Assembly (NCBI GenBank): GCA_000091205.1
Contig: AP006483.2
Length of the DNA stretch: 64,000 bases
Reading direction: 5' to 3' (one strand)
From: Cyanidioschyzon merolae
Lineage: Eukaryota
Shown: in pieces, positions 3,001-57,269 of the stretch
Position numbering within the stretch: the first letter of the stretch is position 1
Layout: every line of letters begins with the position of its first letter
The notes under the pieces: generated by a model
Told to the model about the DNA's origin: nothing
What the model saw: the letters and a program-made list of their open reading frames with translations, nothing else
The model's database searches: none
Program-made: the position numbers and the translations under genes

Positions 3001-3240
3001 GTCGCAGCAAAACTCACTAGTCGCTACCTGTGCACCGGGTTTCCAGGGCAACGAAGGCAAAGGTTTGCAACCCACCGACGTCGCCGTAAAAGCAATATTC
3101 ATAGGCACGCTCGTGCTCATAGGAAATCATTCCTCTACGTTCCGAGAGAGATTCCCAGTCCAGTCGTTCCATGTGTATCGCCTCTGAATCACGGCCCATG
3201 GGCAAGATTTCAGAGTGCTCTCCGCGCACATCTGTAGCCG

Positions 3241-9973: not shown

Positions 9974-11299
9974 CTAGGGCAGCGGATGCTGACAGTGGTG
10001 ACGGTATCGAGCTGCGAAGCACCCGTCACGTGCGGTACGCCGCGGGAACCGTGCACGAGTTGCAGCGCGCGCGCGCGAAAAATGTGTCTTTCCTAGTACA
10101 GCGGAACAGAAACGAAAAGAGCTTGCATTTTCTTGGGATAGATTCTCTCCGATGCGGAAGCTGTCGATCGTTTCAACAACAAGAAACGTTCGCTTAAGTA
10201 TGCGTATCCAGTCAAAAACCTCTTTTGCGTAGCGGCACGAGTGATCGCCCGTCAATTGCCCAGAGTCCGAGCTAAATCTCCCGTAGATTGTCTAGCGTTC
10301 AGCGCAACTAGCACAAGCGCTCAATGCCTTTTCAGAAACTAGGCAGAACTCCGACCATTTCGAACAACAACTTCACCAGTACGTAGTGCCAAGGGTTCCG
10401 CAGTGCGGCGCTCAGAGATCACAACGATCGTAAATGGACTTCACCACAGCTCTCCGACGAATACCGTAGAGGAGGCATAAGGAAATTTCCTACGGTGCTC
10501 TGTATTTTTTGCAAACGTCTGCACGTCAGTTGGAGACTTCATGTCTAGGGCAGGTCATTCGGCATTATTGTACACCGCGGGCGGCAGCGTTTTTTTCAAA
10601 GGCATTCGTTGTTCGCTTTGTCGCTTCCGGGCTCGATGTTCGGGTTAGGCTCTTGAAACTAATCTTATAGAGTAGATCAGAATACAGTATGTGCTTTTGG
10701 CGGATGCCTCGGTCAAACGGAATGCTAAGTATAGACACTCTATGTATGCGATGCCTCTACCAAGATCACCGGATCCGGGAGAGTAGCAAGCACCATAACT
10801 TGGACAATGACGATAGCATGCAAATGGCTTGAACTGCCATCAGTACCAGCCTATGACGCAGGATCGAAGCACAATTCAGGTCAGTTCCTCATTGCAGCGT
10901 CCGTGCGGCATGCATAACAAGCATCACGAACAAACGTATATACGAGTTCAGGAACACTAACGTACCTTGTGTGGTTACGATCAATAAAACGAACGAAATC
11001 CCTAACGAGAAGATTGATGCATACCTCATCCAGACAACCGTAAGCCGCAGAGAACGCTACGCTTTTGATAGAAGCGTCGAGGGGTTTCGTGCCAGGCCCA
11101 ACAGCTCCATGTATGTCAGGGCGGTGCTGCGATGGGCAGTTGCGTCGGCACCAGCGACATAACCTCTAGCAAGAGACTGCTCTACGTGAGTTTCCGATCT
11201 ACGACACTTGACTTCCGCTGCAGCGCGATGCGAACACGCATGTGCCAAGGCGGTGCGTGGGACACGTGTCTTTCATCAATCGGGGAGGCGTCTCGCGCG

Positions 11300-14000
11300 G
11301 TGCACGCATCGCGCCGGTGAGCGCACCTGGGAGATCGGGCAGGCATGAGACACGACGTGTATGTCGCCGTTGATGGGAAACGTGATCTCGTTCAGAAGCG
11401 TGTTGTTCAGCTGTAAAAAGCTTTATTTGCGTTGGGGTCATAGCCAAGTGTAGTTTTCAGTCCATTTGTGTTTCAAACTTCAAACAAGTCTAGTCAAGTG
11501 TTTTTTCCCAGCATATACCACAAGCGTCCAAAGAGCGTTCTTTTTCAAAAAAAATAGGAAAGCTATGAAAAAGCAAGTCCACGATCCTGGAGGTCCAGTG
11601 TCGCCGGCTGCCAGAAAAAACAAAAACAATACCGAGCCCAGAAGATAAAGTAGAGAAAAAGAAGCAAATGGGGGAGGCCCCACGTCGAAGGCGGCAAGAA
11701 AGACAACTGGACAACGAGATGGTGGTTAAAGGCTGTCTTCTTAAAAATATCAAAGATTCCTAGAGGGAAAAGTTGGTAGACGCTATCAAAACACGTGTCG
11801 ACTCGTACTCCAAGAGCATTTTCAAGGCGTCGTCAGGACCGATGCATTTGGCGGGGGAGATGTATCGCGACGTGACGCACATCGAAACGGTCGAGATTCC
11901 AGACGAGTTTTTCGACGTGACCTTTATTCGTCACCTGATGCTTGGTACAGAGGAAGCGCGGATGGAAAATGAGCGGGTGCACGCCCTCCACGAAAAATAT
12001 CCCTCTTACAGCTTCGCGGGTACTCGAAACAAGGGGGACTGGAGTATTTACGACTATGGGGCGATGAAGTACCTCACGAATCTGAAGCAACATTTGACAA
12101 CGAACCTCGAATGTTTCATGATACGCGCCGTGGTTGCACTCTACCCGGACATCTCTCGCAAAGGAAAATCGGCGATTATCAATGGCATCAAGAACGATCG
12201 CAAGCATGAAGATGAGATCGAATTCGTCGGAGAGAAGGCGACAAACGAGAGCACAAAAGAAGCTTCTGTGATCCGTAAGGCTAGAGAAGAGCACCGAGCA
12301 CTCTTGGGTTGGCGAATCCAACAGAAAAGATATCAGAGTTGAAAAAAGATAAGGAAAGATACTATCGCCTCGTCCTGCGCTATTTCGTGTTTTTGGATCG
12401 TGAACTCAAACGCAAGGCGGAGATGAAGCTGAGTGGGGAAAAAATGAAGAGTGCGAGAGACGGACGGCTCTCCTAATGGGGAAGCGCTTCAAACAGTGGT
12501 TCCGTTGTGGAACATCAAGTCACATTTTGTGACTATCGATTCCAGAATCCTTCACGGCATCATGAAGTAGAACCGTCCGGATTTCAGTGTCAGCAGAGAC
12601 GATTTCTCCGGTGAAAATCGGGAAACGTACTGGAAGAATATCTTCGTTTCCGAACGTCTCAAAGTGAGCAAACAAAAGGTATTTATTGGGATGATCGAAA
12701 CCTATGGAGTAGCCATGTGTGTACACGATCGGCGCTTGAAGACAGATCGGACAGTTTCGTCCTCGGCTTCGCCCGCGACGAAGGATGAAGATGAGAAGAA
12801 GGCGGATCTTGCGACGCAGAAAGTGCACGAGAACAACATTGTCGTTGGTGCGGACCCCGGAAACACAAATATCATAAATATCGCAGCACCCAAGGGTGCG
12901 GAAGATCGCAATGACGGCAACTTTCGTCGGAAACACATGCGCCTTTTGAGGTTCTCGAGAGCGAGACACTATCTAGAATCCGGTATAATGAAGGCAAGGA
13001 AGAGGATTGACACGTGGAATGCAGGAGTGAAGGATCAGTTGGAAGCTTTGAACAAGGTGACGAGCTGAGGAGCGGACTTTGAAGTTTTTTGAAATTCATG
13101 GAAGCTCACGTTGCTCATTGGGAGACACTGTGGAAAAAGTATACCAAGCCCCGATGGGCCCGTCTGCGCACGAGTCTATAATGCGTGAAGCAGCGTGCAT
13201 TTGACAACTTTTCCAATTATTTGAACGCCCTAAAAGAGGATGAGGGTCAGAAGCTCGTTGTAGCGTACGGAGCAGGGCGCTGGATGACCCAAAAAGCGAC
13301 TGCGCCAGCTCCGTCAGCATGAAAGAACAAGGTGTGCGCAAGGCGTTTTGTTCCGAAACCGATAGATGAGTTTCGAACACCGTATACACACCATGAACTA
13401 GGCTGTACACTTCAAAGGGTCGTGATGGAAAAGTGCCTGCGGAGCCCTGAGGGTACAAAAAGTACGGAGCGTTGACGGAACAGCAAATGGAAAGCGGGCG
13501 AAAGTTCGAGGAATGCTTGCACTAGTGAGTACCGTAAATAGCAAGGAACGTGTGGAGTTTGTGAACCGAGACTTTAACTCTGCCATCAATATCAGACGGT
13601 GTGCAGTGATGTGGAAGAAACTTCCAAAGTTGACAAGAGAGAATTTTGTTGGGCAAACTCTCAAACTCGGACTATATGAGAAAAGAATGGAACCAGTAGT
13701 AGGAGGCCGGCCGAGAGCCTGGGAGGCTTCTGCACGTCAGTTGGGAACGTCTTGTCCAGAACGGATTCCTCGCCACTACTGTACACCGCGGGCGTCGTTC
13801 GACTTTTGGAAAGTGTTCGGTGTCAGGGGTGCCCACTCTAGACAACAACGATCGCGTGAACAGTTCATGTCCGTTGTGCAAGCATGGAGTCGCTTCAAGA
13901 GCTGGGCGCTGGGCCCGACTGGCCTGAAAACAACGCACGCTTGGGGGCCTATCTCGAACGCTGGTTTACCTTTGGCAGGTTTCGCAGACATTACGAAACC
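11300..14000 (+). mobile_element. TnpB/Fanzor-like element, copy 1 (degenerate); boundaries approximate
   Basis: Nucleotide homology to the 51.8-54.4 kb copy begins upstream of the ORF (about 11.3-11.5 kb) and fades past the C-terminal coding region (about 13.8-14.0 kb). Flanks differ between copies. Confidence 0.6.
11773..13830 (+). pseudogene. TnpB/Fanzor-like RuvC nuclease, interrupted (ORF pieces 11773-12342, about 12350-12640 in another frame, 12664-13068, 13513-13830)
   Basis: RuvC-I-like [17 protein letters not shown] (about 12848-12895). RuvC-III-like [15 protein letters not shown] (about 13555-13600). 60-70% aa identity to copy 2 across the N-terminal (IPDEFFD.TFIRHL.LGT), middle and C-terminal segments. 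Frame breaks fall at different places than in copy 2. Confidence 0.65.
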
Positions 14001-29079: not shown

Positions 29080-31449
29080 AGTGCCTCGATGCACCAGCCA
29101 TTCTCGACGTGAACGTCGTGCTCATCATTGGGGTCTTCGGCGTCGTACACGCCACCGTTGCTGCAACAATGAATGGCAACTCTACAGCGATCTAACGTTG
29201 AGGTTGCGCGTTCAAGTCTCGGCCTGGTGCAGAGCCCTGCAGACTCCCCCTGGAGGACTCTGTTTTTGGAGGCGTACATACAGGCAGGTTCACGCTCGTC
29301 GAGCATCCGGCACATTGCGCTTGGCACCCAGAGGGTACTGTTCGGTGGGGATCGGAAGCCTCACGGGCTATGTGGTGATCAGTGCGACAACGACGCCCTC
29401 GATGATGCCTGTAGCCAATGTCGCAGTGGCAGCAACAACAGTGGTACGCGTGATCCAGGAACAACGACGCGTTGCGGTAATTTTTAGAGTTCCCTCGGTA
29501 ACGTTTGCGCGGTATTGTGTTGGGAACTTCGCCCCGTTATCTGTGTTGAATTAGGCAGGCAGATTCCATGAGGCGACTCAAAGACCAAATGAGATTCCTG
29601 TTACATATATGTAGACGTTCTATGCGACCGAGGACGTGTGATCGTCACGGGTAGCGGACTCGGGGTGCTCTCGACATCATGCAGTGCCTGCCGAGATACT
29701 GCACTTCAGATAGGAGTCGTGGAACGTCTACCACAACCTCAGTCATATTCGAACACCATTCGCTATGCTATATGCGCTGTCCATACCATAGCTACCGAGA
29801 AAGCTCCTTGGTATCTGCAGGAGCTAGAGCCTCAACCCTAACAAAAAGTCCTACTGGATCGCCCGAAGATGACTGCGTAGTGCAGGAACACGTTTTCTTG
29901 TGCCGCTGGAGTGCGATAGCCCTAGATAGGCGGAACGTCGCCGTTTTGCTAGCTGTAAGTTCTGGTTACGCCGCTGGACCTAAATTTTTCGGGGAAATCG
30001 ACTGCTTCAAACTTCGTAACGATACGTTCTCGAGGTCCATGTTTACCAATCTGATCCATGCGTCCTTAAATGGCGTCAAAACGTGCCGTCTCTCGCAACG
30101 CGTCACCTGGATCCGTTTCGGAGACTTTAAGTGAACGTTTGCCTTGTCATAAACGGCTCTCCCCCAGTGCTCCATTCACCACTTGTTTCCCTCTAGGCAC
30201 TTGACACTGTCCGGCTGGGCAGGTACGTCGCACAACACCGACATGCTTGCAGGCCACGTACAGCAATTCGAGATAATTTTTATTCACCCCTGCTCTCTGG
30301 AATAGAAAGCTATTTCGCAGTGTTCAGCAGGTGATCGAAATCACGATACGATGCACTGCACTGATCGAAGACGAATTGTCTGTAGAGTATTTTATTTACT
30401 AAACATTGCAATCAGGACAACATTCCTGCTTCAAATCACCCATATCACAGTATTCAGATGGTTGTGGAACATTGAAAGCAAGAAGTATATGCGCTCCGTA
30501 ACAAGAACCAATATTCTTGAGTACTCTTTGCGGTCAATGGTAGAGAACGACCCGTTGATCACCCTAGGGAAAGCACGAGCGACGATGGTAGCCGGCATGG
30601 GCGTCTCAGTTTTCCAGCAGCTTGTTTGCGTGGTCCTGAAAACGCTGGGGTATAGTCGCAAAAAATGAGTCCTAGTTCAATGACGGCCACTGTCTACCGA
30701 AATCACATCTACAGCAAAGTTCCTGGAATCTCACTATCGGTCTGATGTACAGGGATGTCATTGTTTTCTACAGTCGATGAGACTTGCTTCGAATGAAACG
30801 GTCAGAGCTTATGTGGATATTTGCGGAGCAGGGAGCCCGTTGTTTGTACGATCGATTTCGAAGAGAGCGATCATATCGTTATTTGGTCAAGCTGCAGTGG
30901 ATTCAAGTGACGGCCTCAGTTTGGCTCGCAGAGGAGGCTCATACAGGAACACCATCCACTTTGTCGAATGGTTGAAGACTATCGCTTGGTGTCTGGCGAC
31001 GTGTTTCTATTGATCAGAGTGAGATTTCAGCATCCCCGTCGCGTTCGAGCCTTTGCGGATTGTATCGGGGTAGAGCTGCTTTTCATTCTTCCGTACACTC
31101 TATGATTCAACCGCATTGAAAGAGTGATTTTAACCTTGAAACGCAAATGTTCCACCACTGGGCGGATCTCGCGAAGCGATCAGCACACGGTGACATACCA
31201 GGGACACATATCGCCTTTCTTCTGATAGTGCGTCTCCCCGCGGGAAGTCTCTTCCCGAAGGCCGTAAATGAGAGCGTCCATTTGAGGAAATAAAAAATCC
31301 GAGGCAAGGTATGGACATGGAAGTCGAGGATCCCCGAGGGCCGTCAACGCCGGCTGCCCGACAAGAACAAATGAAAAAAAACAACATCTTCTCGCTGACC
31401 GTCGAGCGAAGGAGAGCAAGTGACTGAGGCGAATAAGAAGTAGAGGGCA

Positions 31450-31760
31450 GATAGGCGAGAAAATGTATTTGCCCAGCGGGACGATGACGAGACGCTGGTG
31501 GCACAGAGGCCATGAGTTCGAAGAATCCTTGCTTGCACTGGTGCTTCATCCAGAGGCAATAAACCTATGGTTTTCGTGAATCGTGACTTCAGAGCTGCCC
31601 TCAAACTGAGACGGTGTGCGGTACAGAGTACGAGACCCGATGAGCTGACGCGATCCAACTTCCTGGGGCAGCCTCTCAGGCTCGGAGTCTACGTGGAAAA
31701 ACTCAAATCGATAGCAGGAGGCAGGTCAAACAAGGCTGGAAGGCGTCTGGACACAGACAC
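31450..31760 (+). pseudogene. Fragment of a third TnpB/Fanzor-like copy (C-terminal RuvC-III region only, degenerate)
   Basis: MVFVNRDFRAALKLRRCAV...SNFLGQPLRLGVYVEKLKSIAGGRS parallels copy1 [18 protein letters not shown]...[25 protein letters not shown]. The preceding frame gives ESLLALV, matching RGLLALVST in copy 2. The NAAxNI motif has decayed to RAALKL. Confidence 0.6.
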
Positions 31761-33372: not shown

Positions 33373-33446
33373 CAGTGGTGCGGCATCGACGTCGTCGGTC
33401 GCATTATGGTGCGGATGTCCCGAATATGATCTTGAGTACCGCATTC

Positions 33447-34497
33447 GCGGTAGTAGCGAATCGCGGAATATCAGTATCGTTCCTGCAACCATTGCCCAGC
33501 AAATCCTTCCCAGTGTACCAGTACGGCGCTGTCGCCTTGGTGCAATGCTGAACACCACCGTACCCGTGCCAGGCTCCAGGCGGGAATCCAATGCCGTCTA
33601 TCCCGGGGTACGGATTCATTGGCATCGAAAGCCTTGCACATCCCAGCACAATGCCAATAACGTGTACCAAACAATCACCTTAGACGCCCGCTCGAGACAC
33701 AGCCGCTGGACGCCCCGAATGCCCCAGACTCTTCTTCCGAATGGTGATCGAGGTGTCCAGGTCTCGGTTCAGAGCGAAAACACTGGCCGGCACGGCGGCT
33801 ACTGGCATCACACCCTAGCAAGCATCTCACCAGGTCGAGTCCGTCGGTACATGACACTCGATCAGCTTACCGTACACCACAGAGTGTACCGGGCTCCGTT
33901 CTATCCGCATCTTGTCAGCCTGATTCAACGAGAACTCATGCTCGTAATGCAGGTATGTCGCCCTGGAGGCATCCACGGGTGTCTAACAAGAATCAGTCGC
34001 TGCACTTATCGTCCGGTCTCGTCCACGAGACGCGAATGGAGGCCACGCGCACTGCAACCCGTGCACCGTCACAGGCTACGACTCACAGAGGCGTCTTGCT
34101 AGTCACTTGGCTTCGTGCCGCTCACGGAATAAGTTCGTGAATGCACGCTCCTCGCTGCCGTACACGAGACGCAGTCTAGGACTCCAGCACTCTATCATGT
34201 ACGCCTGTCCAGGGATCGTCCGCAGGAGCCTGCGGGACGCTGAGGCACGCGCTGAAGCGCGGAATCCCTCGCATCAGTCTTCGTGTTTTTCGGTGGCATT
34301 CCGGTGAGCGGACAGCGCCTACATCAGGCGCGCTCCACACGGACTCGGTTACTCTTCTGGGTTTCGACTCTCGTTAGAAACGCTTTGGAGCTTGCCTCGA
34401 GTGTGCTGCAATCATTAGCATCGCTACTCGACGCGCCACTGTATTCGGGATCAGCTGGGCAACGTCGTTCGACGTGTTGCCAGCGTACTGCATCTCC
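33447..34497. repeat. Direct repeat copy 1 (about 1.05 kb, about 99% identical to 39274-40327)
   Basis: Starts right after the aminoacylase stop codon. Identity begins at ...cgcgg[t/g]a[g/a]tagcgaatcgcggaatatcag and ends at ...gttgccagcgtactgcatc. Embedded ORF translations differ at about 7 of 210 codons. Confidence 0.85.
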
Positions 34498-38230: not shown

Positions 38231-39273
38231 ACGACTGCGGTTTTTGTCGGGCGTGGGTGCATACTGAGCTAGTGCGCAGGACAGCGTGCCGGCATGACGC
38301 TGCTTCCAAACTCGACGCTTGTCTCGTATAGTCGAAGATGCTGATCCGAACACTGGGCGTCCTATGGCTCCAATACGGGAACCAGATCGATTCGAATGCA
38401 CACGAAGGTGCTGCTGTGTGCACCAGAAGTTTCCCTCCTGCCAGCATGGGAAACGAGGATATGCTATTTAGCCTGATCATCGCGCAGAAGACATGCAGGG
38501 AGCATCACGCTCGACCGCAGATACCCAACTCCTACAGACAGACCGAACCAGGAAACAGTATGTGATTGCTGCTTCTTGGCACATGCAAGCGACGATGAGC
38601 ACGATAGCGCGACACGGGTCTTGGATTCTTTGGCACAGTGTGTGTCTCGCCAAGCTGTGTATCAGGCATTGGCAAAGCAGCAGTCACGCCAAAACCTGTG
38701 TCCCGAGTCACACTCTTGCGGCAGGTCGTGCTCGCGTAAACGGTTTCAGCTCTAACACGTTTCCGAAGTTGGAATCGTGGCAGATACGCATACTTGCAAA
38801 AACTTTCATCCATTGCGTCGCGCCTTGGTAAAGTAACGTAGCGTTGCTTTCGGTCCGAAAAAGCGCCGAGACGATGCCGTCGTCAAGACTCATACATCAT
38901 TCCAGAATATGATGCAGCGAGCGTGACTTGCCTCATTGCGCTGTGGATGGGTCATCAGTTAGCGCTGATCCACGTTCGGATGGAACCTAGAGAGGGCGCG
39001 TCGCGAGCGCAGCGCAGCCTGGGCGCCAGAGCCGCTGTCCAACACAAGGAGCGTGCAGCCTCGCTTGTATTGTCTCCTGAGAGATCTGCGATATGCGCAG
39101 CTCGCACGGCTCAACGATACAAGGCGCAAATATTAAGAGGAAAGAGCGAGCAGGTACAAAGCCCGTATCCGACAGCTACGGATTGTAGAGCGAAAAGATG
39201 GGATTCAAAAGGAAATTAAAAAAGAGAGATGTGTCGTTATAGAAAATATTCCGCAACCACGCCTCCATGCCTA

Positions 39274-40327
39274 TACGCGGGAATAGCGAATCGCGGAATA
39301 TCAGTATCGTTCCTGCAACCATTGCCCAGCAAATCCTTCCCAGTGTACCAGTACGGCGCTGTCGCCTTGGTGCAATGCTGAACACCACCGTACCCGTGCC
39401 AGGCTCCAGGCGGAAATCCAATGCCGTCTATCCCGGGGTACGGATTCATTGGCATCGAAAGCCTTGCGCATCCCAGCACAATGCCAATAACGTGTACCAA
39501 ACAATCACTTTAGACGCCCGCTCGAGACACAGCCGCTGGACGCCCCGAATGCCCCAGACTCTTCTTCCGAATGGTGATCGAGGTGTCCAGGTCTCGGTTC
39601 AGAGCGAAAACACTGGCCGGCACGGCGGCTACTGGCATCACACCCTAGCAAGCATCTCACCAGGTCGAGTCCGTCGGTACATGACACTCGATCAGCTTAC
39701 CGTACACCACAGAGTGTACCGGGCTCCGTTCTATCCGCATCTTGTCAGCCTGATTCAACGAGCACTCATGCTCGTAATGCAGGTATGTCGCCCTGGAGGC
39801 ATCCACGGGGGTCTAACAAGAATCAGTCGCTGCACTTATCGTCCGTTCTCGTCCACGGGACGCGAATGGAGGCCACGCGCACTGCAACCCGTGCACCGTC
39901 ACAGGCTACCACTCACAGAGGCGTCTTGCTAGTCATTTGGCTTCGTGCCGCTCACGGAATAAGTTCGTGAATGCACGCTCCTCGCTGCCGTACACGAGAC
40001 GCAGTCTAGGACTCCAGCACTCTATCATGTACGCCTGTCCAGGGATCGTCCGCAGGAGCCTGCGGGACGCTGACGCACGCGCTGAAGCGCGGAATCCCTC
40101 GCATCAGTCTTCGTGTTTTTCGGTGGCATTCCGGTGAGCGGACAGCGCCTACATCAGGCGCGCTCCACACGGACTCGGTTACTCTTCTGGGTTTCGACTC
40201 TCGTTAGAAACGCTTTGGAGCTTGCCTCGAGTGTGCTGCAATCATTAGCATCGCAACTCGACGCGCCACTGTATTCGGGATCAGCTGGGCAACGTCGTTC
40301 GACGTGTTGCCAGCGTACTGCATCGCT
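39274..40327. repeat. Direct repeat copy 2 (about 1.05 kb)
   Basis: See copy 1. There is a purine-rich stretch (aaaaggaaattaaaaaagagagatg) about 50 bp upstream. Confidence 0.85.
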
Positions 40328-49957: not shown

Positions 49958-51628
49958 TTAGAAGCGAGCCGTCTTGGGTCGATGGTTGCGCAAATCATCC
50001 GACGGGGTGCCGTCGATGTCCGTCTCGGACTTGGCACCGCGCGGGACTCGTTCCAGGGTAGCGACCAATGCCTGCGCGACTTTCTCTTGCCGTGCACGAA
50101 CGTACTTATCGCTGACCTGCATCCGTTTGTAATAGCCATCGATTTCAACGGACTTGAGGCCTGCCGCAGAACAGATCGCTCGCTTCACTCGAGCTGCAAA
50201 CTCGGCGGCCGATTCATTCGGTTGTTGTTTCATGGGCTCCAGGAAGTAGACGTCAGCAACTAACGCCCAACTCGTCCAGATACGAAAGAGATGCCAAAGA
50301 AACGACTCCTCCATGGAGTTCCAGAACGCGTCCGCGAAAAGCTTGTTGTACTTGATTGCAACCGGGTAAATGACGGCATCCTTCATCTCGAAGGCGCCCT
50401 TCTTAAACATTAAGCAGTATTCATTGTTCACACAGGTACCCTCGGGAAAAATGAGCAGTGGTGGAACATTCGGCTTCTGAAGGTGTTCTTCGATCCGTTT
50501 CCGTACAAGCTGTCGATCCTGGAGGTCGTCGCGCGAGAACCAGATGCATCCAAGACACTCGAGGACGTGCTTTTGGAGCAAGCCCACGATACCACCGTGT
50601 GCCTGGCCAACGGTCGCAAACGGACACAGTTGCTGGAGCACAATCAAATCGATCAGCGACGAGTGATTCGCAACGTAAATCGCATGCGGTCGCATTCGTG
50701 GACGAGTTCCATGATACGCGATAACGCCGCTCATAGACATGATCCAGCACGCTGAGTACAAGACAATAAGCTTTCTTTCCAGCTCGTGACGACGTTCTGG
50801 ATTTCTTCGATAGAGCCATTTGGTTATGGAGAACGCGAGCGCGAAAAGCACGCTCCCACTCACGAGGCAGAGTACGCGCAAAGGCAGTAGGATGCCGTAT
50901 CGGATAACGACACCGAATACCCATGGTAAGAAAAGGTACACGTTCCAGTTCCACGCAGGGACAGGGGTCCGTTTGAAGCACCGCGAAAACTCATCTTCAA
51001 CCACATCCTCCATAGCTTCCGTCGCGAATGTCAGCGGAGCAAAGAGAAGCGGTAACCCGCTGACAGGCATTGCCTCTGTCCCGAGCACCTCCATGAGCGC
51101 CCGCTCGAAGCGCTCTTGCACGCGTTCGCGATCAGAGGAGGCATCCAGGTCACCACGTACCATTCCAGCAAGGTCGGCCCAGGATTCGCTTGCTCTCTGG
51201 AGCGCCAGTTTCGTGCGAGTCTGTCCTCGGGTAAGCAGACCCTCGCGCGGACCCTGGCTCCTTGCCGACGGCGACGCCTGCGCAGCATTCATCAAGACCG
51301 TAGATAACTCCTGGGTCACGGCCAGCGGCGAAGCGCGCTCCACTTGTTTTCCTTGACCTCGCATTGTCTGGGTGATGTCGTAGGCAGCGGGCCGCTCTTG
51401 AGGCGCCTCGATCAGAGGGGTTGGAGGTCTCTCCCTACTCAGTGGCGGTGCCGTTGCAGGTGACGTGTTCCGATCTCCGTCATCGAACACCTTATCTTGC
51501 GCTTTCGCGAAAGAACCAGTTCTCTTTTCAGCGTCGAGGTACTGGGCCACACGCGCGTCCACCGGAACGGGCTCTTCCCCAGGGTTCTCGCCCAGAGGCG
51601 GCTGTGCTTTGGCGGTGGTCGCTGCCAT
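49958..51628 (-). CDS. Glycerol-3-phosphate acyltransferase, GPAT9 / GPAT3-4 (AGPAT6) type
   Basis: 556 aa. VANHSSLIDLIVL (HxxxxD acyltransferase motif I), GGIVGLLQKHVLECLGCIWFSR, LLIFPEGTCVNNEYCLMFKKGAFE (motif III-IV), AIKYNKLFADAFWNS. Strong resemblance to the GPAT9 consensus NHTSMIDFI.L...GWVGLLQ...GCIWF.R / FPEGTCVNN. Confidence 0.8.
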   Translation of the reverse strand: MAATTAKAQPPLGENPGEEPVPVDARVAQYLDAEKRTGSFAKAQDKVFDDGDRNTSPATAPPLSRERPPTPLIEAPQERPAAYDITQTMRGQGKQVERASPLAVTQELSTVLMNAAQASPSARSQGPREGLLTRGQTRTKLALQRASESWADLAGMVRGDLDASSDRERVQERFERALMEVLGTEAMPVSGLPLLFAPLTFATEAMEDVVEDEFSRCFKRTPVPAWNWNVYLFLPWVFGVVIRYGILLPLRVLCLVSGSVLFALAFSITKWLYRRNPERRHELERKLIVLYSACWIMSMSGVIAYHGTRPRMRPHAIYVANHSSLIDLIVLQQLCPFATVGQAHGGIVGLLQKHVLECLGCIWFSRDDLQDRQLVRKRIEEHLQKPNVPPLLIFPEGTCVNNEYCLMFKKGAFEMKDAVIYPVAIKYNKLFADAFWNSMEESFLWHLFRIWTSWALVADVYFLEPMKQQPNESAAEFAARVKRAICSAAGLKSVEIDGYYKRMQVSDKYVRARQEKVAQALVATLERVPRGAKSETDIDGTPSDDLRNHRPKTARF

Positions 51629-51759
51629 GCCTCACCGACACCGTTCAGAACCAGGCGGAAGCTGCAGAAGCTGGATTCGCCACCGAAAACCCGACGGACG
51701 AAAGACTTGAGTCACGTCGGACCCGTCTCTGGAATAGAGAAAAAAGGTTTTGGCCAGTT

Positions 51760-54420
51760 TATCGTGACGTTGTCGAGCAGGCGTGCGCTGCGCCTCAGGG
51801 CGTGTGCTCCAGAGGCAACGCCAGTGCCGATTGGTGCCGGCGCACCGTATACCGCACTCAACTGAAGCGTGTTCCACACAAAGGTGTGTGGAAGTCGATG
51901 CTTTTTTCGTTGTATGTAGCAGACGCTATCGCAGGTCGTTCATTAGACGTGATAAAAAAATCTAAGGGAATGGTATGGGGGTGCTATGCGGAAATCCCGG
52001 AAGGCTTTCATTGCCGGGTTGAACAAAACTGGAAAGCCGTGCCGAGCATAGAGGAACGGGAAAGGACGATGCAGCAGAAGCAATCGCGCGAGGCCGGACG
52101 TTGAAAAGGATCTCGAAAGACGACAGTACGACGGGATGGTGGTGAAAGCCTCTTTTCTTGGCCATAGCTAGTATCCCTACAAAAAAAAGTTACGAGAAAC
52201 GATCAGAAACCTTGTCGAGTCGTATTCAATGAGTATTATTGAGGCTTCTTCGGGACTGGTGCATATGGCGAAGGAGATGTACGACAATGTGACGGACATT
52301 CGAAGAGTCAAGATTCCGGACGAGTTTTTCGACAAGACCTTTATTCGTCACCTTGTGCTTGGTACAGGGGATGCGCGGGGTGAAAATGAGCGGGTGCACG
52401 TCCTCCACGAAAACTTTGCAGAATTCCGCTTCGAGGGTAATCGATACAGGGGTGACGCGGATGCTTACATATACGGGGCGATGAAGTATCTCACGAATCT
52501 GAAGAACCATTTGACAATGAACGTCGAACGTTTCATGATACGCCCCGTGTTTGCACTTTACGCGGGCATCTCTCGCAAAGGAATATGGGCAATTATCAAT
52601 GGCTTTACAAACAATCCCCAGCATGAAGATGAGGTTGAATTCGTCGACAAGAAGGCGTCACACAGGAGAAGGAATGAAGCTTCTGTAATCCGTGCGCCTA
52701 CTAAAGAGCACCGCGCAGAATTGGGACTGGCGAATCCAGCAGAAAAGATATCAGAGTTGAAAACAGATACGGAAAGATACTAATATCTCATCCTGCGGTA
52801 TTTCGTGTTTTTGGACCGCGAGCTCGAACGCAAGGCGGAGATGATGCTAAGTGAGGAAAAAATGAAGTGCGGGAGAGACGGAAGGCTTTCCGAATGGGGG
52901 AGCGCTCCAACATCGTTCCGTTGTGCAACATCAAGTCACATTTTGTGCGTATTGATTCCGGCGTCCTTTACGGCATCATGAAGGGGATCTGTCCGGGGTT
53001 CGATGTAAGGAAGACAGAGTTCTCCGGTGAAACCCAGGAGACGTACTGGAAGAATATCTTCGATATCAAACGTCTCAAAGTGAGCAAGAAAAAGAAATTC
53101 ACTGGGATGATAGAAACTGATGGACTAGCCATATGTGTACACTATCGGCGGTTCAAGACAGATCGGCATGTTCCGTCTTCGGCTTTGCCCGAGACGAAGC
53201 ATGAAGATGAGAAGGAGGAGGATCCTGCGATGCAGAACGTGCAGAAGAACGACTTTTTCGTTGGCGCGGACCCCGGGAACACGAACATCGTAACCATCGC
53301 AGTACGCAGGCGTGCGGAAGATGGTACTGATGGTACCTTGCGTCGGAAAGAAATGCGTCTATTGAGATTCTCTAGAGCGAGATACGATCGAGAATGGGGA
53401 ATCATGAATGCGAGGAGGAAAATCGAGACTTGGAATGCAGGAGTGAAAGAGCACCTGGAAGCTATGAGCGAAGTGACGAGCCGCGAAGCAGACTTGAAAG
53501 CTTTTCGGGAGTCCATGGAAGTTCGCGTTGCGCATTGGGAGGCGCTGTGGGCGGCGGAGTATACAAAGCCCCGGTGGGCTCGTTTGCGAATGAATTTGTA
53601 TTTTGGGAAACAGCGTGCATTCGCGAATTTTTTTTCAATGAGTTGAGCGCCTTGAAGGAGGATGAAAGTCAGAGGCTCCTAGTAGCATACGGAGCAGGGC
53701 GATGGAAGATCCAAAAAGAAACTATGCCAGCTCCAACGACGAGAACATTCAAAGAGTGCGCAAGGCGCTTCGTTACGATACCTGTAGATGAGTTCCGAAT
53801 GTCCTACACACACCATGAACTGGGATGTACACTTCAGAACGTCGAGATGGAAAAGTGCCAGCGGAGCCCTGAGGAGGATATAGCAAAATATGGACCGCTG
53901 GCGGAAGAGCAAATGGAAAGGAGAGCGAAAGCTCGAGGACTACTTGCATTAGTAAGTACAACCAACGATGGCAAGAAACGGATGGAGTTTGTGAATCGAG
54001 ACTTGAACGCCGCGATCAATATACGGGGATGGGCGGTGATGGAGCATAAACCTCCAGACAGGACAAGAGTGAACTTTATCGGACAATCACTTCAAGTCGA
54101 ACTATATGAGAAAAAGTTGAAACCAGTAGTCGTTGGCCGGTCCAAAAAACTGGGAGGCGTCTGCACGTCACTTGGAGACTTCTTGTCTAGGGCAGGCTTC
54201 TCGCCACTATTGTACCACTGGCAGCAGCGTTTGTCTTTTGAAAGGCGTTTGTTGTTGGAGGTGGGCGTGAACGAAGGCCACTGTGAAAAGTCTGCGTCAA
54301 GTCGCTTTTTCTTTCGTACTCCCAGGCCTTCTGCAGCTGAGCAAACTACTGAACCGAGCGCTTAGGGCGACTCGGGTTTCTGTGAGAGGCAGCCCGCGGT
54401 TGGTATCATGGTGCGGCACA
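51760..54420 (+). mobile_element. TnpB/Fanzor-like element, copy 2 (more intact); boundaries approximate
   Basis: Homology with copy 1 starts in the GPAT9 5' flank (about 51.78-51.9 kb: ctgaagcgtgttccacac vs cagaagcgtgttgttcag). It runs past the end of the coding frame to about 54.3-54.4 kb (e.g. ctgggaggc[g/t]tctgcacgtca[c/g]ttgg...ctcgccacta[t/c]tgtac). Confidence 0.6.
52229..54365 (+). pseudogene. TnpB/Fanzor-like RuvC-family nuclease (IS605 OrfB/TnpB superfamily), about 700 codons across three frames; either disabled or intron-containing
   Basis: ORF pieces are 52229-52783, 52867-53646 and 53394-54365. RuvC-I-like [17 protein letters not shown] (about 53255-53305). A helical Arg-rich segment [16 protein letters not shown] Zn-finger-like PVDEFRMSYTHHELGCTLQNVEMEKCQRS. 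RuvC-III MEFVNRDLNAAINIRGWAV (about 53982-54038), i.e. the D-x-N-A-A-x-N-I hallmark. A TAA stop follows ...KTDTERY at 52781 (copy 1 reads ERYYRLVLRY through). Frame switches occur near 52905 and 53640. Confidence 0.65.
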
Positions 54421-56816
54421 CGCCTCGGCGAGGTTCGGGTGTGGGCACTGCAGCCCCAGCGGTTGCGTCCACATCCAGAGCAAAGCACGGACCTGTTGCT
54501 GCAACAGCGGTGCCACAGCAGGCATCCACACCCCCGTGCGATGTCTCTGGAGAGGACCATGCGTCCCAGCCAGGCGCCTCAGCGGAGACGCTTGAGGTGC
54601 CCAGCGACTTTGGGTGCGACGACTTGCGCCCTGCAGCAAGCGCAACCCGGGATTCGGGCAAGCACCTGGAGCCGGACGCCGAACGGTTTGGCTCTTTGGA
54701 ACAGGTGCGTCAGGAAGCCGAAGCAGGAACGGAACTGACGCGCTCTGCACTGGGTCCTCGCCAAGTGCGGAAGCGAGTGGTGCAGCGTCGGTCCGCGACA
54801 GGCGCTGCAGAGCGAGCCCCAGTGAGTACGCACCCGCCGTCTGATGCGGCTCCAAGGAGCGGCACCTCTGTCGGAGGAACCAACACAGGACAGAGCGGGC
54901 AGGATGCTTGGCACCCAGCGGGTGCTTCTGGACCGGATGCCCCGGAAACCCCAGCTGCGTTCATCACCAGTGCTGCTGTTCCCGAAAGCACCGGTGCTGA
55001 TCTTCGTTGGACGCCTGCTCCCTCATCGGAGCATCTCACCAGAGGCGCTGTCGTCATGCGTTCGCCACAGGTCGACGGACCGGCCACAGCCGTCATCAAG
55101 CGCTGTCCGAACTGCGGGGGTGATGATCTCGAGTTTGGTAGCAGTTCGGGCCAAACAGCGTGCATGCTCTGCGGACATGTCGTTGAGGAGAACACCGTAG
55201 TCAATGAGCTCCAGTTCGTAGAGGGTGCTGGCGGTCACAGTGCCGTCGTAGGTCAGTTCGTACGCACCGGCAGCAGCGGAGCAGCGTCGCTGGGCGCAGC
55301 CGCTGCAGCCACCGCAGCCGGTGCGTCGCTGCTCTATAACGCATCCACGGCCGGTGTGACGCGTCTCACCATAGGGCATCGGGAGTCGCGGGAACTCACG
55401 TACGCAGCCGGACGCCGGAGAATCGCCACCATCGCTTCGCAGTTACACCTGCCGCCGCGGTTTGTGGATGCAGCGCATCGTTTGTTCACGCTGGCTGTCC
55501 AGCACAATTTCGTGCAGGGCAGGCGTACCCAGACGGTGGCGGCTGCAGCGCTCTACATTGTCTGTCGACGGGAGAAGACGCCGCATCTGCTCATTGACTT
55601 TAGCGATACGCTGCGTATCAATGTGTACGTCCTGGGTCATACTTATCTGAAATTGTGCCGCGTTCTGCATTTGGCATTGCCGATCATTGATCCTTCGTTT
55701 TACATTCACCGGTTTGCAAGTCGGTTAGATCTGGGCGAGAAGCAGAATGCAGTAGCGCAAACCGCACTGCGTCTGATCAGTCGAATGAAGAGGGACTGGA
55801 TCCATACTGGGCGGCGTCCGGCTGGTCTCTGTGGGGCAGCACTGCTCATTGCAGCTCGTATGCACGGCTTCCGTCGCTCGCAGCGTGAAATAGGTGCCGT
55901 CGTTCGTGTCGGTGATATGACCATTCGCCAGCGACTCTGTGAGATCGAAGAGACGCCCACTGGAACGCTCACTGGTCGAGAGCTTGCCGCCGAGTCGGGC
56001 TTGATCGAATCCGTTGCCGAGGAAGACACCACCGAGGCGCCTCTGGCGGCAACCGCGGATACCTCCGCAAACGCAGTGTCACCTGAGGCAGTTGACACAC
56101 TCGACGGCTGCGACCCGCCAGCGTTCCGGCGCCGGCACGCGTTGTCGTCGTCGTCGTCATTGGAGTGGCTCGAGCAGCAACACCACGTCCTGGAACAGAG
56201 CAAGGCAGCTGAACAGGACATTGTCGCGGATACCTCGCTTACCGAGCAGGAGCGAGCTTTTCTGGAAGCCTCCGCCACTGCCGAGGGCGAGCGCGTACCC
56301 GTAACGGTACTGGTGGCACCGGCAACGTCCCACGGTGCAGTCTCGAACTACGTCGGCTCGGTGAGGCGCGAGGCCTCGGGACCCCTGGCCCCGCTTGGCG
56401 CTGCAGCGGATGAGCGTGCCGCAAACCCGGTGACAACGGGCGTTATCGCTGGTACATCTGGTCTGTCGACGCGATCCGGCCCCGAGGGCGGAGCGAATTA
56501 TCGCTGGCTAAGCGACCGAGTCGAAGAGCTCAGCGACCTCGACTCCGAGGAGGAGGCTATGTTCGTGTGCACGCCCGAGGAAACTGCCTTTCGGGAGAAA
56601 ATATGGACGGCGATGAACCAGGAATGGATCGAGCGTGAGGCTGAAATCGCTCGTTGGGAACGCGACGATCCCGAGCGGTACCAGCGTCTCATGCGCAAAC
56701 GAGAGTACATGCGTGGTTTCTACAAATCCAACGCCAGCAACAGCGCCGCTGCTGAAGCGCCCTGGAGTCACAGCGCCACAGCAACAGCAGCAGCAGCAGC
56801 AGTTGCAACAACAACG

Positions 56817-56861
<45 letters not shown>

Positions 56862-57269
56862 CCTGGTGGCGAGCGTCCCAGTACAGTTGCACCTGCCGCA
56901 GTCGAGGCGGTCGTGCGCTCCGTACGCGACGCTGTGCGCAGCGCAGTGACGCACTCGAAGCGTACGAGCAAGAAAATCAACTATGATGCCCTAGAACAGT
57001 ACGACCTTGGCGGCCGTGGCGACTCGATTCCAACAAACGATGCCGAAACAGTCGCAGTCGCAGATGCTGCCGGGCGTCCATCGCAGCCAGCACCGAGTCT
57101 GTTTGACTTTGGTGATCAACCTGCACCCGAGAGACGACCACCGGTTGCGCAGTCGTCGATACCAGCACCAACGCGCGTAGCGAAACGCGTTGTTCGGCAG
57201 CAGCAGCACCATCAACAACAACAACAACGCGCCGCCTCCGCTACCCCTCAACCGACGCACCAGACATGA
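54408..57269 (+). CDS. BRF1: Transcription factor IIIB subunit Brf1 (TFIIB-related factor)
   Basis: 953-aa ORF. The TFIIB zinc ribbon is KRCPNCGGDDLEFGSSSGQTACMLCGHVVEEN. Two cyclin-fold repeats (RRIATIASQLHLPPRFVDAAHRLFTLAV...QGRRTQTVAAAALYIVCRREKTPHLLIDFSDTL...; ...ALRLISRMKRDWIHTGRRPAGLCGAALLIAARMHGFRRSQREIG). Brf1-specific C-terminal extension with polyA/polyQ. The first about 216 codons are Ala/Ser-rich and overlap the Fanzor-like element tail, so the true start may be the Met at about 55056 (MRSPQVDG...). Confidence 0.85.
56778..56860. repeat. (CAG)n coding microsatellite in Brf1 (polyQ/polyA depending on frame)
   Basis: cagcaacagcagcagcagcagcagttgcaacaacaacgacagcagcagcagcagcagcagcagcagcagcagcagcagc. 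Confidence 0.9.

Follow-up and report, generated by a model that had tools for sequence, protein, structure and literature searches.

A 5'-truncated Fanzor1 pseudogene matching the mobile element CMe-1A in an intergenic spacer of Cyanidioschyzon merolae

CMe-1A copies in the window

The window analysed here, a stretch of 64,000 nucleotides of C. merolae nuclear DNA, contains a long match to the mobile element CMe-1A. The match lies between an acyltransferase gene and the Brf1 gene, which are transcribed divergently, and its intergenic position leaves both of them undisrupted; the acyltransferase ORF is exactly XP_005535025.1 (C. merolae 10D). In a blastn comparison with the published 3,169-bp consensus, consensus positions 955–3169 aligned with 52021–54247 of the window at 85.4% identity over 2,233 columns. 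This match is termed copy 2, and its parts are listed in Table 1 together with the other CMe-1A-related sequences. Copy 1 and copy 2 were 77.5% identical to each other. Projection onto the consensus gave 6 stops and 72% protein identity for copy 1, compared with 4 stops and 76% amino-acid identity for copy 2, in agreement with the earlier note on this DNA, which had called copy 2 the most intact. The diverged sequence starting at 31288 consists of consensus 888–966 followed by the C-terminal ~87 codons.

Table 1 CMe-1A-related features of the window and the evidence for each
Feature	Position	Strand	Evidence
CMe-1A Fanzor1 element, copy 2, 5'-truncated	52021..54256	+	blastn to consensus, global and local alignments, right-end comparison
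Copy 2, N-terminal (REC/WED-like) coding remnant, CMe-1 residues 46–294, mod 2 frame	52115..52861	+	tblastn 75.5%
Copy 2, middle coding remnant, CMe-1 residues 294–552, mod 1 frame	52858..53637	+	tblastn 77.7%; hhalign
Copy 2, C-terminal coding remnant, CMe-1 residues 550–723, mod 0 frame	53631..54149	+	tblastn 82.3%; hhalign
Copy 2, last 15 codons and family stop TAG 54188–54190, mod 2 frame	54143..54190	+	tblastn (residues 720–734), indels, projection
Copy 2, conserved 3' terminal ~220 nt (ORF end and ~60–70 nt non-coding tail)	54033..54256	+	copies in the window and 50 metagenome loci
Copy 1 of CMe-1A, 5'-truncated at consensus ~660	11321..13815	+	blastn 83.5% over consensus 660–3145
Isolated CMe-1A right-end fragment, consensus 3078–3168	10516..10603	+	blastn 81%
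Internally deleted, diverged CMe-1A-related copy	31288..31752	+	blastn, tblastn, alignment

CMe-1A was described with a 3,169-bp consensus, an encoded protein of 734 aa, a single-exon gene and no TIRs; ~150 copies with ~80% identity to the consensus were reported in the C. merolae genome, some of which still encode intact proteins, the encoded protein was given the name Fanzor1, and C. merolae is among the listed Fanzor1 hosts (Bao & Jurka 2013, Mobile DNA 4:12; PMC3627910). Copy 2 shares gene order and 3' end with the published element and lies in the same host genome; it differs from the published element in its 5' truncation, stops and frameshifts. The family call made for copy 2 is thus correct but not new. 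The earlier note had considered the family most notable if the lineage was not known to carry Fanzor; C. merolae being an already published host, this proviso fails and most of the claimed interest is gone. As a discovery the locus carries little weight, since the family, host, copy number and Fanzor1 identity were all out in 2013; Fanzor1 proteins were demonstrated to be RNA-guided nucleases in 2023, and red algae are not mentioned in Yoon et al. 2023.

Clear homology of copy 2 starts at codon 17 (consensus 955). Local alignment revealed weak similarity further upstream, down to ~51900–51972, with the consensus ATG at ~51972, and consensus 1–836 had no match in or near copy 2 by blastn or local alignment. 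The first ~840–950 bp of the element, including the promoter-proximal part and the first codons, is missing; copy 2 is not a complete element, since it lacks the 5' 635 bp common to CMe-1A and TE-N2_CMe. Full-length CMe-1A copies were found at metagenome loci. The recognisable coding sequence begins ~250 bp upstream of 52229, the start given previously.

The right end of copy 2 lies at 54247 according to the published consensus, or at ~54256 according to the comparison with 30+ other copies, and it coincides in alignment with the 3' ends of copy 1 and of the fragment at 10516. This many-copy comparison suggests that the true CMe-1A right end is ~9–10 nt beyond the published consensus end. The earlier note had extended the ORF to 54365 and let its tail overlap Brf1. 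This extension is read-through caused by a 1-nt deletion at ~54149, past the family stop; the longest Brf1 ORF has its ATG at 54408, preceded by a stop at 54363–54365, and the element ends ~150 bp short of that ATG, without any overlap.

Lesions in the reading frame of copy 2

Comparison of copy 2 with the family consensus revealed at least two clear premature stops, TAG at 52169–52171 and TAA at 52781–52783, both of which break the N-terminal remnant in the consensus projection, and two further stops (52020 and 52381) whose recognition depends on the alignment. The two clear stops are base substitutions, as the consensus and homologues have sense codons at these positions. Besides the stops, copy 2 contains ~10 frameshifting indels relative to the consensus, including the deletion at ~54149. 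The frame change at ~52857 is a 1-nt deletion, and the change at 53628–53629, through which the C-terminal remnant is reached, is a 2-nt TT insertion within a T run. Three breaks had been reported before: the TAA at 52781 is real and the two frame switches exist, but not at 52905 and 53640 as proposed, and the number of lesions is larger than three, with the TAG and the further indels.

Copy 2 is a pseudogene and not an intron-containing gene. It has no intact ORF, given its stops, frameshifts and missing 5' end, and its catalytic codons are split across different reading frames; owing to the 5' loss, the stops at 52169 and 52781 and this distribution of catalytic residues, it cannot make the protein. 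Stops are not peculiar to copy 2, as most other sampled copies contain them too (almost all long protein matches among 50 sampled loci). Substitutions relative to the consensus amounted to 0.128, 0.115 and 0.183 at the first, second and third codon positions of copy 2, respectively, and this third-position enrichment indicates that part of the divergence arose under selection before the copy died, and also that the consensus is not exactly the parent of copy 2.

Relationship to Fanzor1 proteins

The RuvC motifs of copy 2 were found where the earlier note had placed them, with GADPGNTN at ~53.27 kb and RuvC-III at ~54.0 kb. GADPGNTN occupies 53263–53286 in the middle remnant (mod 1 frame; Asp codon 53269–53271), PVDEFRMSYTHHELGCTL begins at 53781 (mod 0 frame) and contains the relocated Glu codon (53790–53792, in VDEFRMS), and FVNRDLNAAINIRGW spans 53988–54032 with the RuvC-III Asp codon at 54000–54002 in NRDLNAAINI. 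Judged by sequence alignment, these codons of copy 2 specify the RuvC triad of Asp, relocated Glu and Asp; they align with D383 (IDPN), E541 and D606 of SpuFz1, whose active-site residues are D383, N385, E541 and D606 (PMC10432273). VAYGAGR is the RuvC-II strand of copy 2, in which Gly replaces the canonical Glu; loss of the canonical RuvC-II Glu along with a relocated Glu is described for Fanzors in PMC10530073.

The CCCC zinc ribbon of SpuFz1 and PpFz1 belongs to the NUC/TNB domain and lies between the [TS][TS] motif and RD. In a HMMER alignment, its first three ligand positions correspond to His, Leu and Leu in both CMe-1 and copy 2, the fourth lacks a counterpart there, and the wider clade retains the His and one Cys at most. 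The segment previously called Zn-finger-like lacks the four canonical Cys, and the Cys residues singled out in the note show no conservation across homologues; a true zinc finger was rejected, since the ligands are not conserved. PF07282 gave no significant match. In the [TS][TS] motif of Bao & Jurka, Thr is changed to Met in copy 2. The four Cys ligands are also absent in the CMe-1 consensus, yet intact copies are reported (Bao & Jurka 2013), and this observation is the basis for the idea of ribbon-free working taken up below. Neither the loss of zinc ligands nor the right end lying ~9–10 nt further out is mentioned in the cited Fanzor papers.

Profile comparisons were performed with a family profile (A4) of 30 sequences drawn from a 1.8-billion-protein search. 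By hhalign, the fragments 52861–53637 and 53631–54149 matched it with E 5.3e-52 and 7.5e-30, respectively, a similarity well above what chance would give, and the profile in turn matched the solved Fanzor1 chains of PpFz1 (E 2.9e-24), SpuFz1 (2.6e-19) and GtFz1 (5.7e-14); its match to ISDra2 TnpB was weak (E 0.08 over 24 residues, at the RD..NAA motif). For the fold, which in Fanzor1 has a WED/REC/RuvC/NUC architecture, an AF2 model (pLDDT 79, pTM 0.68) of P0042, an intact homologue 40% identical to the repaired copy 2, was compared in place of the broken sequence of the window. The top Foldseek PDB matches of this model were seven Fanzor1 chains (E 6e-15 to 2e-13, TM 0.50–0.70), followed far behind by Cas12f. 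The predicted protein of copy 2 is thereby shown to belong to Fanzor1 by sequence and, through the model of its homologue, by fold.

Other searches gave little. No Pfam family was matched by any of the three ORF fragments, by the 711-aa repaired protein or by six homologues, apart from a single sub-threshold PF07282 match (E 0.23) on homologue P0001; the models OrfB_IS605 and OrfB_Zn_ribbon, which would mark a prokaryotic TnpB, were likewise without a match at E <= 10. Against the PDB, the repaired protein yielded only a spurious ribosomal match by phmmer (E 0.57) and an 11-sequence profile yielded none, so that the Fanzor1 link needed the broader 30-sequence profile and the structure model. 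PF26935 (DUF8286), a domain of unknown function for which no TnpB/Fanzor relationship is named, is a precomputed label on the middle ORF fragment of copy 2 and on many homologues, and was absent from the local Pfam scan results.

In the earlier note, copy 2 was taken for a RuvC nuclease gene of the TnpB/Fanzor superfamily within eukaryotic nuclear DNA, with HMM searches and structure prediction proposed as checks. The profile and fold matches to Fanzor1 bear this out; of the HMM checks, the comparison with Fanzor1 chains through profile A4 was positive and the Pfam TnpB/OrfB models were silent, and the structure check succeeded, with Fanzor1 structures on top for the P0042 model and the D-E-D codons aligning with SpuFz1. 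A TnpB-superfamily gene was thus recognisable by motifs alone, despite empty Pfam and single-sequence PDB searches.

Spizellomyces punctatus SpuFz1 (PDB 8GKH, 9CEU-9CEZ), Parasitella PpFz1 and Guillardia GtFz1 share with CMe-1 the same predicted overall fold (TM 0.5–0.7, ~680 aligned columns), the Asp, relocated Glu and Asp of the RuvC site and a long REC-like N-terminal half, whereas sequence identity is only 12–16%. SpuFz1 elements have 30-nt inverted repeats (PMC10432273), in contrast to CMe-1A, which was reported to have none (PMC3627910). ISDra2 TnpB (PDB 8BF8, 8H1J) and Cas12f have the RuvC core and the RuvC-III RD..NAA..N motif in common with CMe-1, but their matches to it were very weak (E 0.08; TM ~0.2–0.3); the canonical RuvC-II Glu, CCCC ribbon, ~400-aa length and TnpA partner of TnpB are all lacking in copy 2 and CMe-1.

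The conserved 3' end and alternative readings

Fanzor1 forms the eukaryotic arm of the TnpB/Cas12 superfamily. Where members have been characterised (SpuFz1 and others), the 3' end of the element is transcribed into an omega-RNA, which the element's own protein binds; the 3' extension of this RNA is the guide, and DNA is cut by a single RuvC site of Asp, relocated Glu and Asp. By analogy with the family, in which RNA-guided cleavage was demonstrated for SpuFz1, the intact ancestor of CMe-1A would have been an RNA-guided nuclease, and its conserved 3' ~220 nt would have encoded its omega-RNA. These ~220 nt are strongly conserved across >30 copies and include a 24-nt near-invariant core; copy 2 retains them and the right end (~86% identity), and only a single base of its core is changed. 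From the arrangement of characterised Fanzor1 loci we infer that they are a candidate omega-RNA scaffold and right end, in which case the flank starting at ~54257 would have provided the guide.

The consensus MFE fold of the right end gave z = -2.5, and hand-drawn helices (a terminal hairpin, a long-range helix and a GGCG/CGCC hairpin) were 82% paired, with covariation not above that of shuffled controls. RNAalifold on 23 right-end sequences revealed a weak consensus and no compensatory pairs, and Rfam had no match at E <= 1 over 51600–54500. A conserved RNA structure is not claimed for the right end, as its covariation equals that of the shuffled controls.

Copy 2 is almost certainly a CMe-1A copy that is dead and truncated at its 5' end; CMe-1A itself is a multi-copy nuclear mobile element of C. 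merolae with a single Fanzor1 gene. Introns are very few in C. merolae. The earlier note had left open whether copy 2 is a decaying copy or an intron-containing gene, and a live Fanzor gene whose frame breaks are spliced out would fit the three long ORF pieces lying in order on one strand, as well as the acquisition of introns by Fanzor genes in other eukaryotes reported in PMC10530073. However, the frame changes are 1–2-nt indels relative to the family consensus with no inserted block, the two clear stops (52169 and 52781) arose by substitution in otherwise sense codons, the 5' ~840–950 bp of the element including the ORF start is missing, and CMe-1 was published as a single-exon gene (PMC3627910), which makes this reading highly improbable. 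Introns were therefore rejected as the cause of the breaks, each being a 1–2-nt indel or a point stop, and the decaying copy stands. We give next to no probability to a prokaryotic IS200/IS605-type TnpB brought in by contamination or recent horizontal transfer: the weak ISDra2 TnpB match at RD..NAA and the presence of Cas12f among the fold matches point that way, but eukaryotic Fanzor1 was best in sequence and fold by 10–20 orders of magnitude, no Pfam OrfB_IS605 or OrfB_Zn_ribbon match was obtained, the protein, at ~730 aa and with a long REC-like part at its N-terminus, is unlike the ~400-aa TnpB, and Gly occupies the canonical RuvC-II Glu position. Moreover, the genes on either side of copy 2 are housekeeping genes of C. 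merolae, and the contig is chromosome-sized. Bacterial TnpB and contamination were rejected on the far better Fanzor1 matches and these flanking genes.

With the protein gene dead, the 3' end of copy 2 might still be a source of omega-RNA for an intact CMe-1 protein made elsewhere, resembling the ORF-less "ghost" elements reported for SpuFz1 in Spizellomyces (PMC10432273). The retained 3' ~220 nt with its near-intact core is consistent with such a role, as are the CMe-1A copies that encode intact proteins (Bao & Jurka 2013; PMC3627910). Against it, there was neither significant covariation for a conserved RNA fold nor an Rfam match, and the stops in nearly all sampled long protein matches of the 50 loci make the supply of active CMe-1 protein uncertain; we consider this role quite improbable.

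CMe-1A copies, including the dead copy 2, have a constant 3' end and varied 5' starts (consensus 2, 333, 494, 648, 660, ~955, 2122, 2236, 2833 and 3078). One tentative idea, which we hold to be improbable, is that the CMe-1 clade is a Fanzor1 lineage working without the canonical zinc ribbon and that its constant-3'/variable-5' copies come from right-end-initiated copying; variable 5' starts might, for instance, be left by abortive repair synthesis set off by the nuclease. Alternatively, these starts would result from random deletions after ordinary cut-and-paste transposition. C. merolae is an alga of ~42 C and pH 2, and if the former idea were true, an intact CMe-1 member would be an unusual heat-tolerant RNA-guided nuclease.

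The coordinates and lesions of copy 2 allow the intergenic spacer to be annotated as a transposon remnant and not as a gene. Environmental strains that are 99.3% identical to the window carry this insertion in the same broken form.

Copies of CMe-1A in the window

The region between 51.9 and 54.4 kb contained three long plus-strand ORF pieces in three different frames, and the motifs listed for it by the earlier note were present in these pieces: GADPGNTN (53263–53286), PVDEFRMSYTHHELGCTL (beginning at 53781 and preceded by VAYGAGRW) and FVNRDLNAAINIRGW (53988–54032). Comparison with the transposon CMe-1A (3,169-bp consensus) and its protein CMe-1 (734 aa), both from the supplements of PMC3627910, revealed matches by blastn (see the table) and by tblastn, the latter covering CMe-1 residues 46–734 at 73–82% identity over three frames; thus, on sequence comparison, this element (copy 2) belongs to CMe-1A. 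Its family had been published before: although the earlier note allowed that the lineage might not be known to carry Fanzor, the 2013 paper that named Fanzor (Bao & Jurka 2013, Mobile DNA 4:12, PMC3627910) attributed one Fanzor1 family to the rhodophyte C. merolae, and Jiang et al. 2023 (PMC10530073) likewise count rhodophyta among the Fanzor hosts. According to PMC3627910, CMe-1A has about 150 copies that share ~80% identity each with a consensus of ~3 kb; it lacks terminal inverted repeats and has its 5' 635 bp in common with a second repeat, TE-N2_CMe.

Copies of CMe-1A in the window, matched to the published consensus
Feature	Consensus	Window	Identity
Copy 2	955–3169	52021–54247	85.4% (blastn)
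Copy 1	660–3145	11321–13794	83.5% (blastn)
Right-end fragment	3078–3168	10516–10603	81% (blastn)
Internally deleted copy	888–966, then C-terminal ~87 codons	31288–31752	diverged

Copy 1 (about 11.3–13.8 kb) lies on the same strand as copy 2 and is 77.5% identical to it; both have a GC content of ~0.49 with positive GC and AT skew, and contrast with their GC-rich surroundings. The adjoining 556-aa acyltransferase ORF (49961–51628, minus strand) matches XP_005535025.1 / BAM78739.1 of C. merolae strain 10D exactly, which identifies the window as nuclear DNA of this red alga. On metagenome contigs 99.2–99.5% identical to the window, the same broken insertion separates Brf1 from the acyltransferase. 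The solitary right-end fragment is located ~700 bp upstream of copy 1, an arrangement that recurs in metagenome locus L013. Two 1,052-bp direct repeats (33443–34494 and 39273–40324; 98.7% identical, coding sense on the minus strand) each align with the last ~170 residues of P0042 and P0044, two Fanzor1-like proteins, at no more than 26–30% identity. They appear to represent a second Fanzor-like family of far greater divergence that underwent duplication or homogenisation recently.

Inactivation of copy 2

Copy 2 had been proposed to be either a decaying copy or an intron-containing gene. Global alignment to the consensus and projection onto its codons revealed that consensus 1 to about 840–950 is missing, so that the 5' part of the element and the first codons are gone, and only weak similarity is left around the ATG equivalent (~51972). 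Clear premature stops were found at TAG 52169–71 and TAA 52781–83 (further stops at 52020 and 52381 depend on the local alignment), and the frameshifting indels include −1 at ~52857, +2 (TT) at 53628–9 and −1 at ~54149, as well as several in 51984–52112 and at 52376/52383. Since every break consists of a 1–2-nt change or a substituted base, with no block inserted, and the gene as published has just one exon (PMC3627910), introns are rejected as the cause; the stops, indels and 5' loss bear out the decaying copy, and copy 2 is, judged from these sequence lesions, a pseudogene. Relative to the consensus, third codon positions showed a modest excess of substitutions (0.183, against 0.128 at first and 0.115 at second positions), indicating that part of the 15% divergence is older than the death of copy 2. 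Because of the −1 shift at 54149, the mod 0 frame passes the family stop (TAG 54188–90) and runs to 54365; the 3' limit previously placed at 54365 thus reflects read-through.

Fanzor1 homology and the RuvC active site

Neither a Pfam scan of the copy 2 ORF pieces and the 711-aa repaired protein nor phmmer against PDB with the copy 2 protein gave a meaningful match. A homology search revealed 57 relatives, most from JGI metagenomes, including ~700-aa proteins that appear intact and share 40% identity (P0042, P0044–46), and a profile run against 1.8 billion representatives returned 4,569 clusters at E ≤ 0.001, hence a large family. The family profile A4 (30 sequences) matched three solved Fanzor1 proteins, from Parasitella (E 2.9e-24), Spizellomyces (E 2.6e-19) and Guillardia (E 5.7e-14), whereas its match to ISDra2 TnpB reached just E 0.08; the translated copy 2 fragments 52861–53637 and 53631–54149 matched A4 at E 5.3e-52 and 7.5e-30. 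The best Foldseek PDB matches of an AlphaFold2 model of the homologue P0042 (pLDDT 79, pTM 0.68) were seven Fanzor1 chains (E 6e-15 to 2e-13; TM-scores as high as 0.70 across ~680 columns), and Cas12f ranked next (E ~1e-4). The observation of copy 2 is confirmed and its interpretation as TnpB/Fanzor-like supported. The middle ORF fragment (52867–53646; locus L051, Ga0078972_1007105) carried a precomputed Pfam label, PF26935 (DUF8286), a domain of unknown function without link to TnpB/Fanzor, which a local Pfam scan of the fragment did not return.

In HMMER alignments, the Asp of the family DPG, the Glu of VDEF and the RD of NRD, all invariant within the family, align with IDPN, LDEY and NRD of Spizellomyces punctatus Fanzor1 (SpuFz1), in which E541, D383, N385 and D606 coordinate two magnesium ions (Saito et al. 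2023, PMC10432273). The three catalytic codons (Asp, Glu, Asp) survive in copy 2 (53269–71, 53790–92 and 54000–02), although the RuvC-I Asp is read in one frame, the Glu and the second Asp in another, and the N-terminal third of the protein in yet another. Whereas TnpB has the RuvC-II Glu, the CMe-1 family has Gly there, in the strand VAYGAGR, in agreement with the "rearranged catalytic site" of Fanzors and its conserved alternative Glu downstream, as described in PMC10530073; the alternative Glu of P0042 is 33 residues downstream.

The earlier reading of one segment as Zn-finger-like was not borne out. Where SpuFz1 and Parasitella Fanzor1 carry the four Cys of their CCCC ribbon, CMe-1 and copy 2 show His, Leu and Leu and lack any equivalent of the fourth, departing from both the superfamily motif of Bao & Jurka (PMC3627910) and SpuFz1 (PMC10432273); the wider clade retains at most the His and one Cys (in an LWC motif), the Cys of ELGC and EKC are not conserved among homologues, and the conserved [TS][TS] motif has a Thr-to-Met change in copy 2. 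Loss of zinc ligands probably explains the silence of PF07282, and in the CMe-1 clade it is a lead of residual interest.

The right end and a candidate omega-RNA

The published consensus places the end of copy 2 at 54247; however, sequence common to 30+ copies goes on ~9–10 nt past the consensus end (..GAAMGGCG|TTYGGTG), to about 54256, and the true CMe-1A right end is probably slightly 3' of the published one. The extension TTYGKTGTY was located at 54248–54256, 13816–13824 and 10605–10613 (columns 232–240 of the right-end alignment A5). The longest Brf1 ORF starts at 54408, beyond the element end and preceded by a stop at 54363–65, so the overlap of the copy 2 tail with Brf1 suggested earlier does not exist. 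This ORF (54408–57269) encodes 953 aa from ATG 54408; its exact sequence was absent from the protein collection, Brf1 of a 99.3%-identical environmental strain was called as 950 aa, and the annotation of Brf1 may deviate a little from this longest ORF in its start or sequence.

Conservation is strong over the last ~220 nt of the element, where a near-invariant core of 24 nt, used as query, retrieved 50 metagenome loci; folding of the 3' consensus is also better than that of shuffled sequences (z = −2.5). By analogy with characterised Fanzor1 systems (PMC10432273 and PMC10530073), the intact CMe-1A ancestor would have bound an omega-RNA transcribed from the element 3' end and cleaved DNA complementary to a guide located after the right end. 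Because RNAalifold revealed no compensatory pairs at the 3' end, covariation in the candidate helices (82% paired) was no better than in shuffled controls and Rfam gave no match, the omega-RNA is still a candidate, inferred from this analogy.

The CMe-1A copies (window 11321, 52021, 10516 and 31288; L001–L050) agree in their 3' end (consensus ~3137–3169), carry no poly(A) tail, and start at variable 5' positions (consensus 2, 333, 494, 648, 660, 702, ~955, 2122, 2236, 2833 and 3078); this constant-3'/variable-5' structure is likewise a residual lead. Immediately 5' of the GADPG codons, a unit of ~80 bp (consensus 2117–2196) forms 2–4 tandem repeats in the environmental copies L024, L033, L039 and L045, and the 752-aa ORF of the homologue P0001 contains repeated ~25-residue blocks from this unit.
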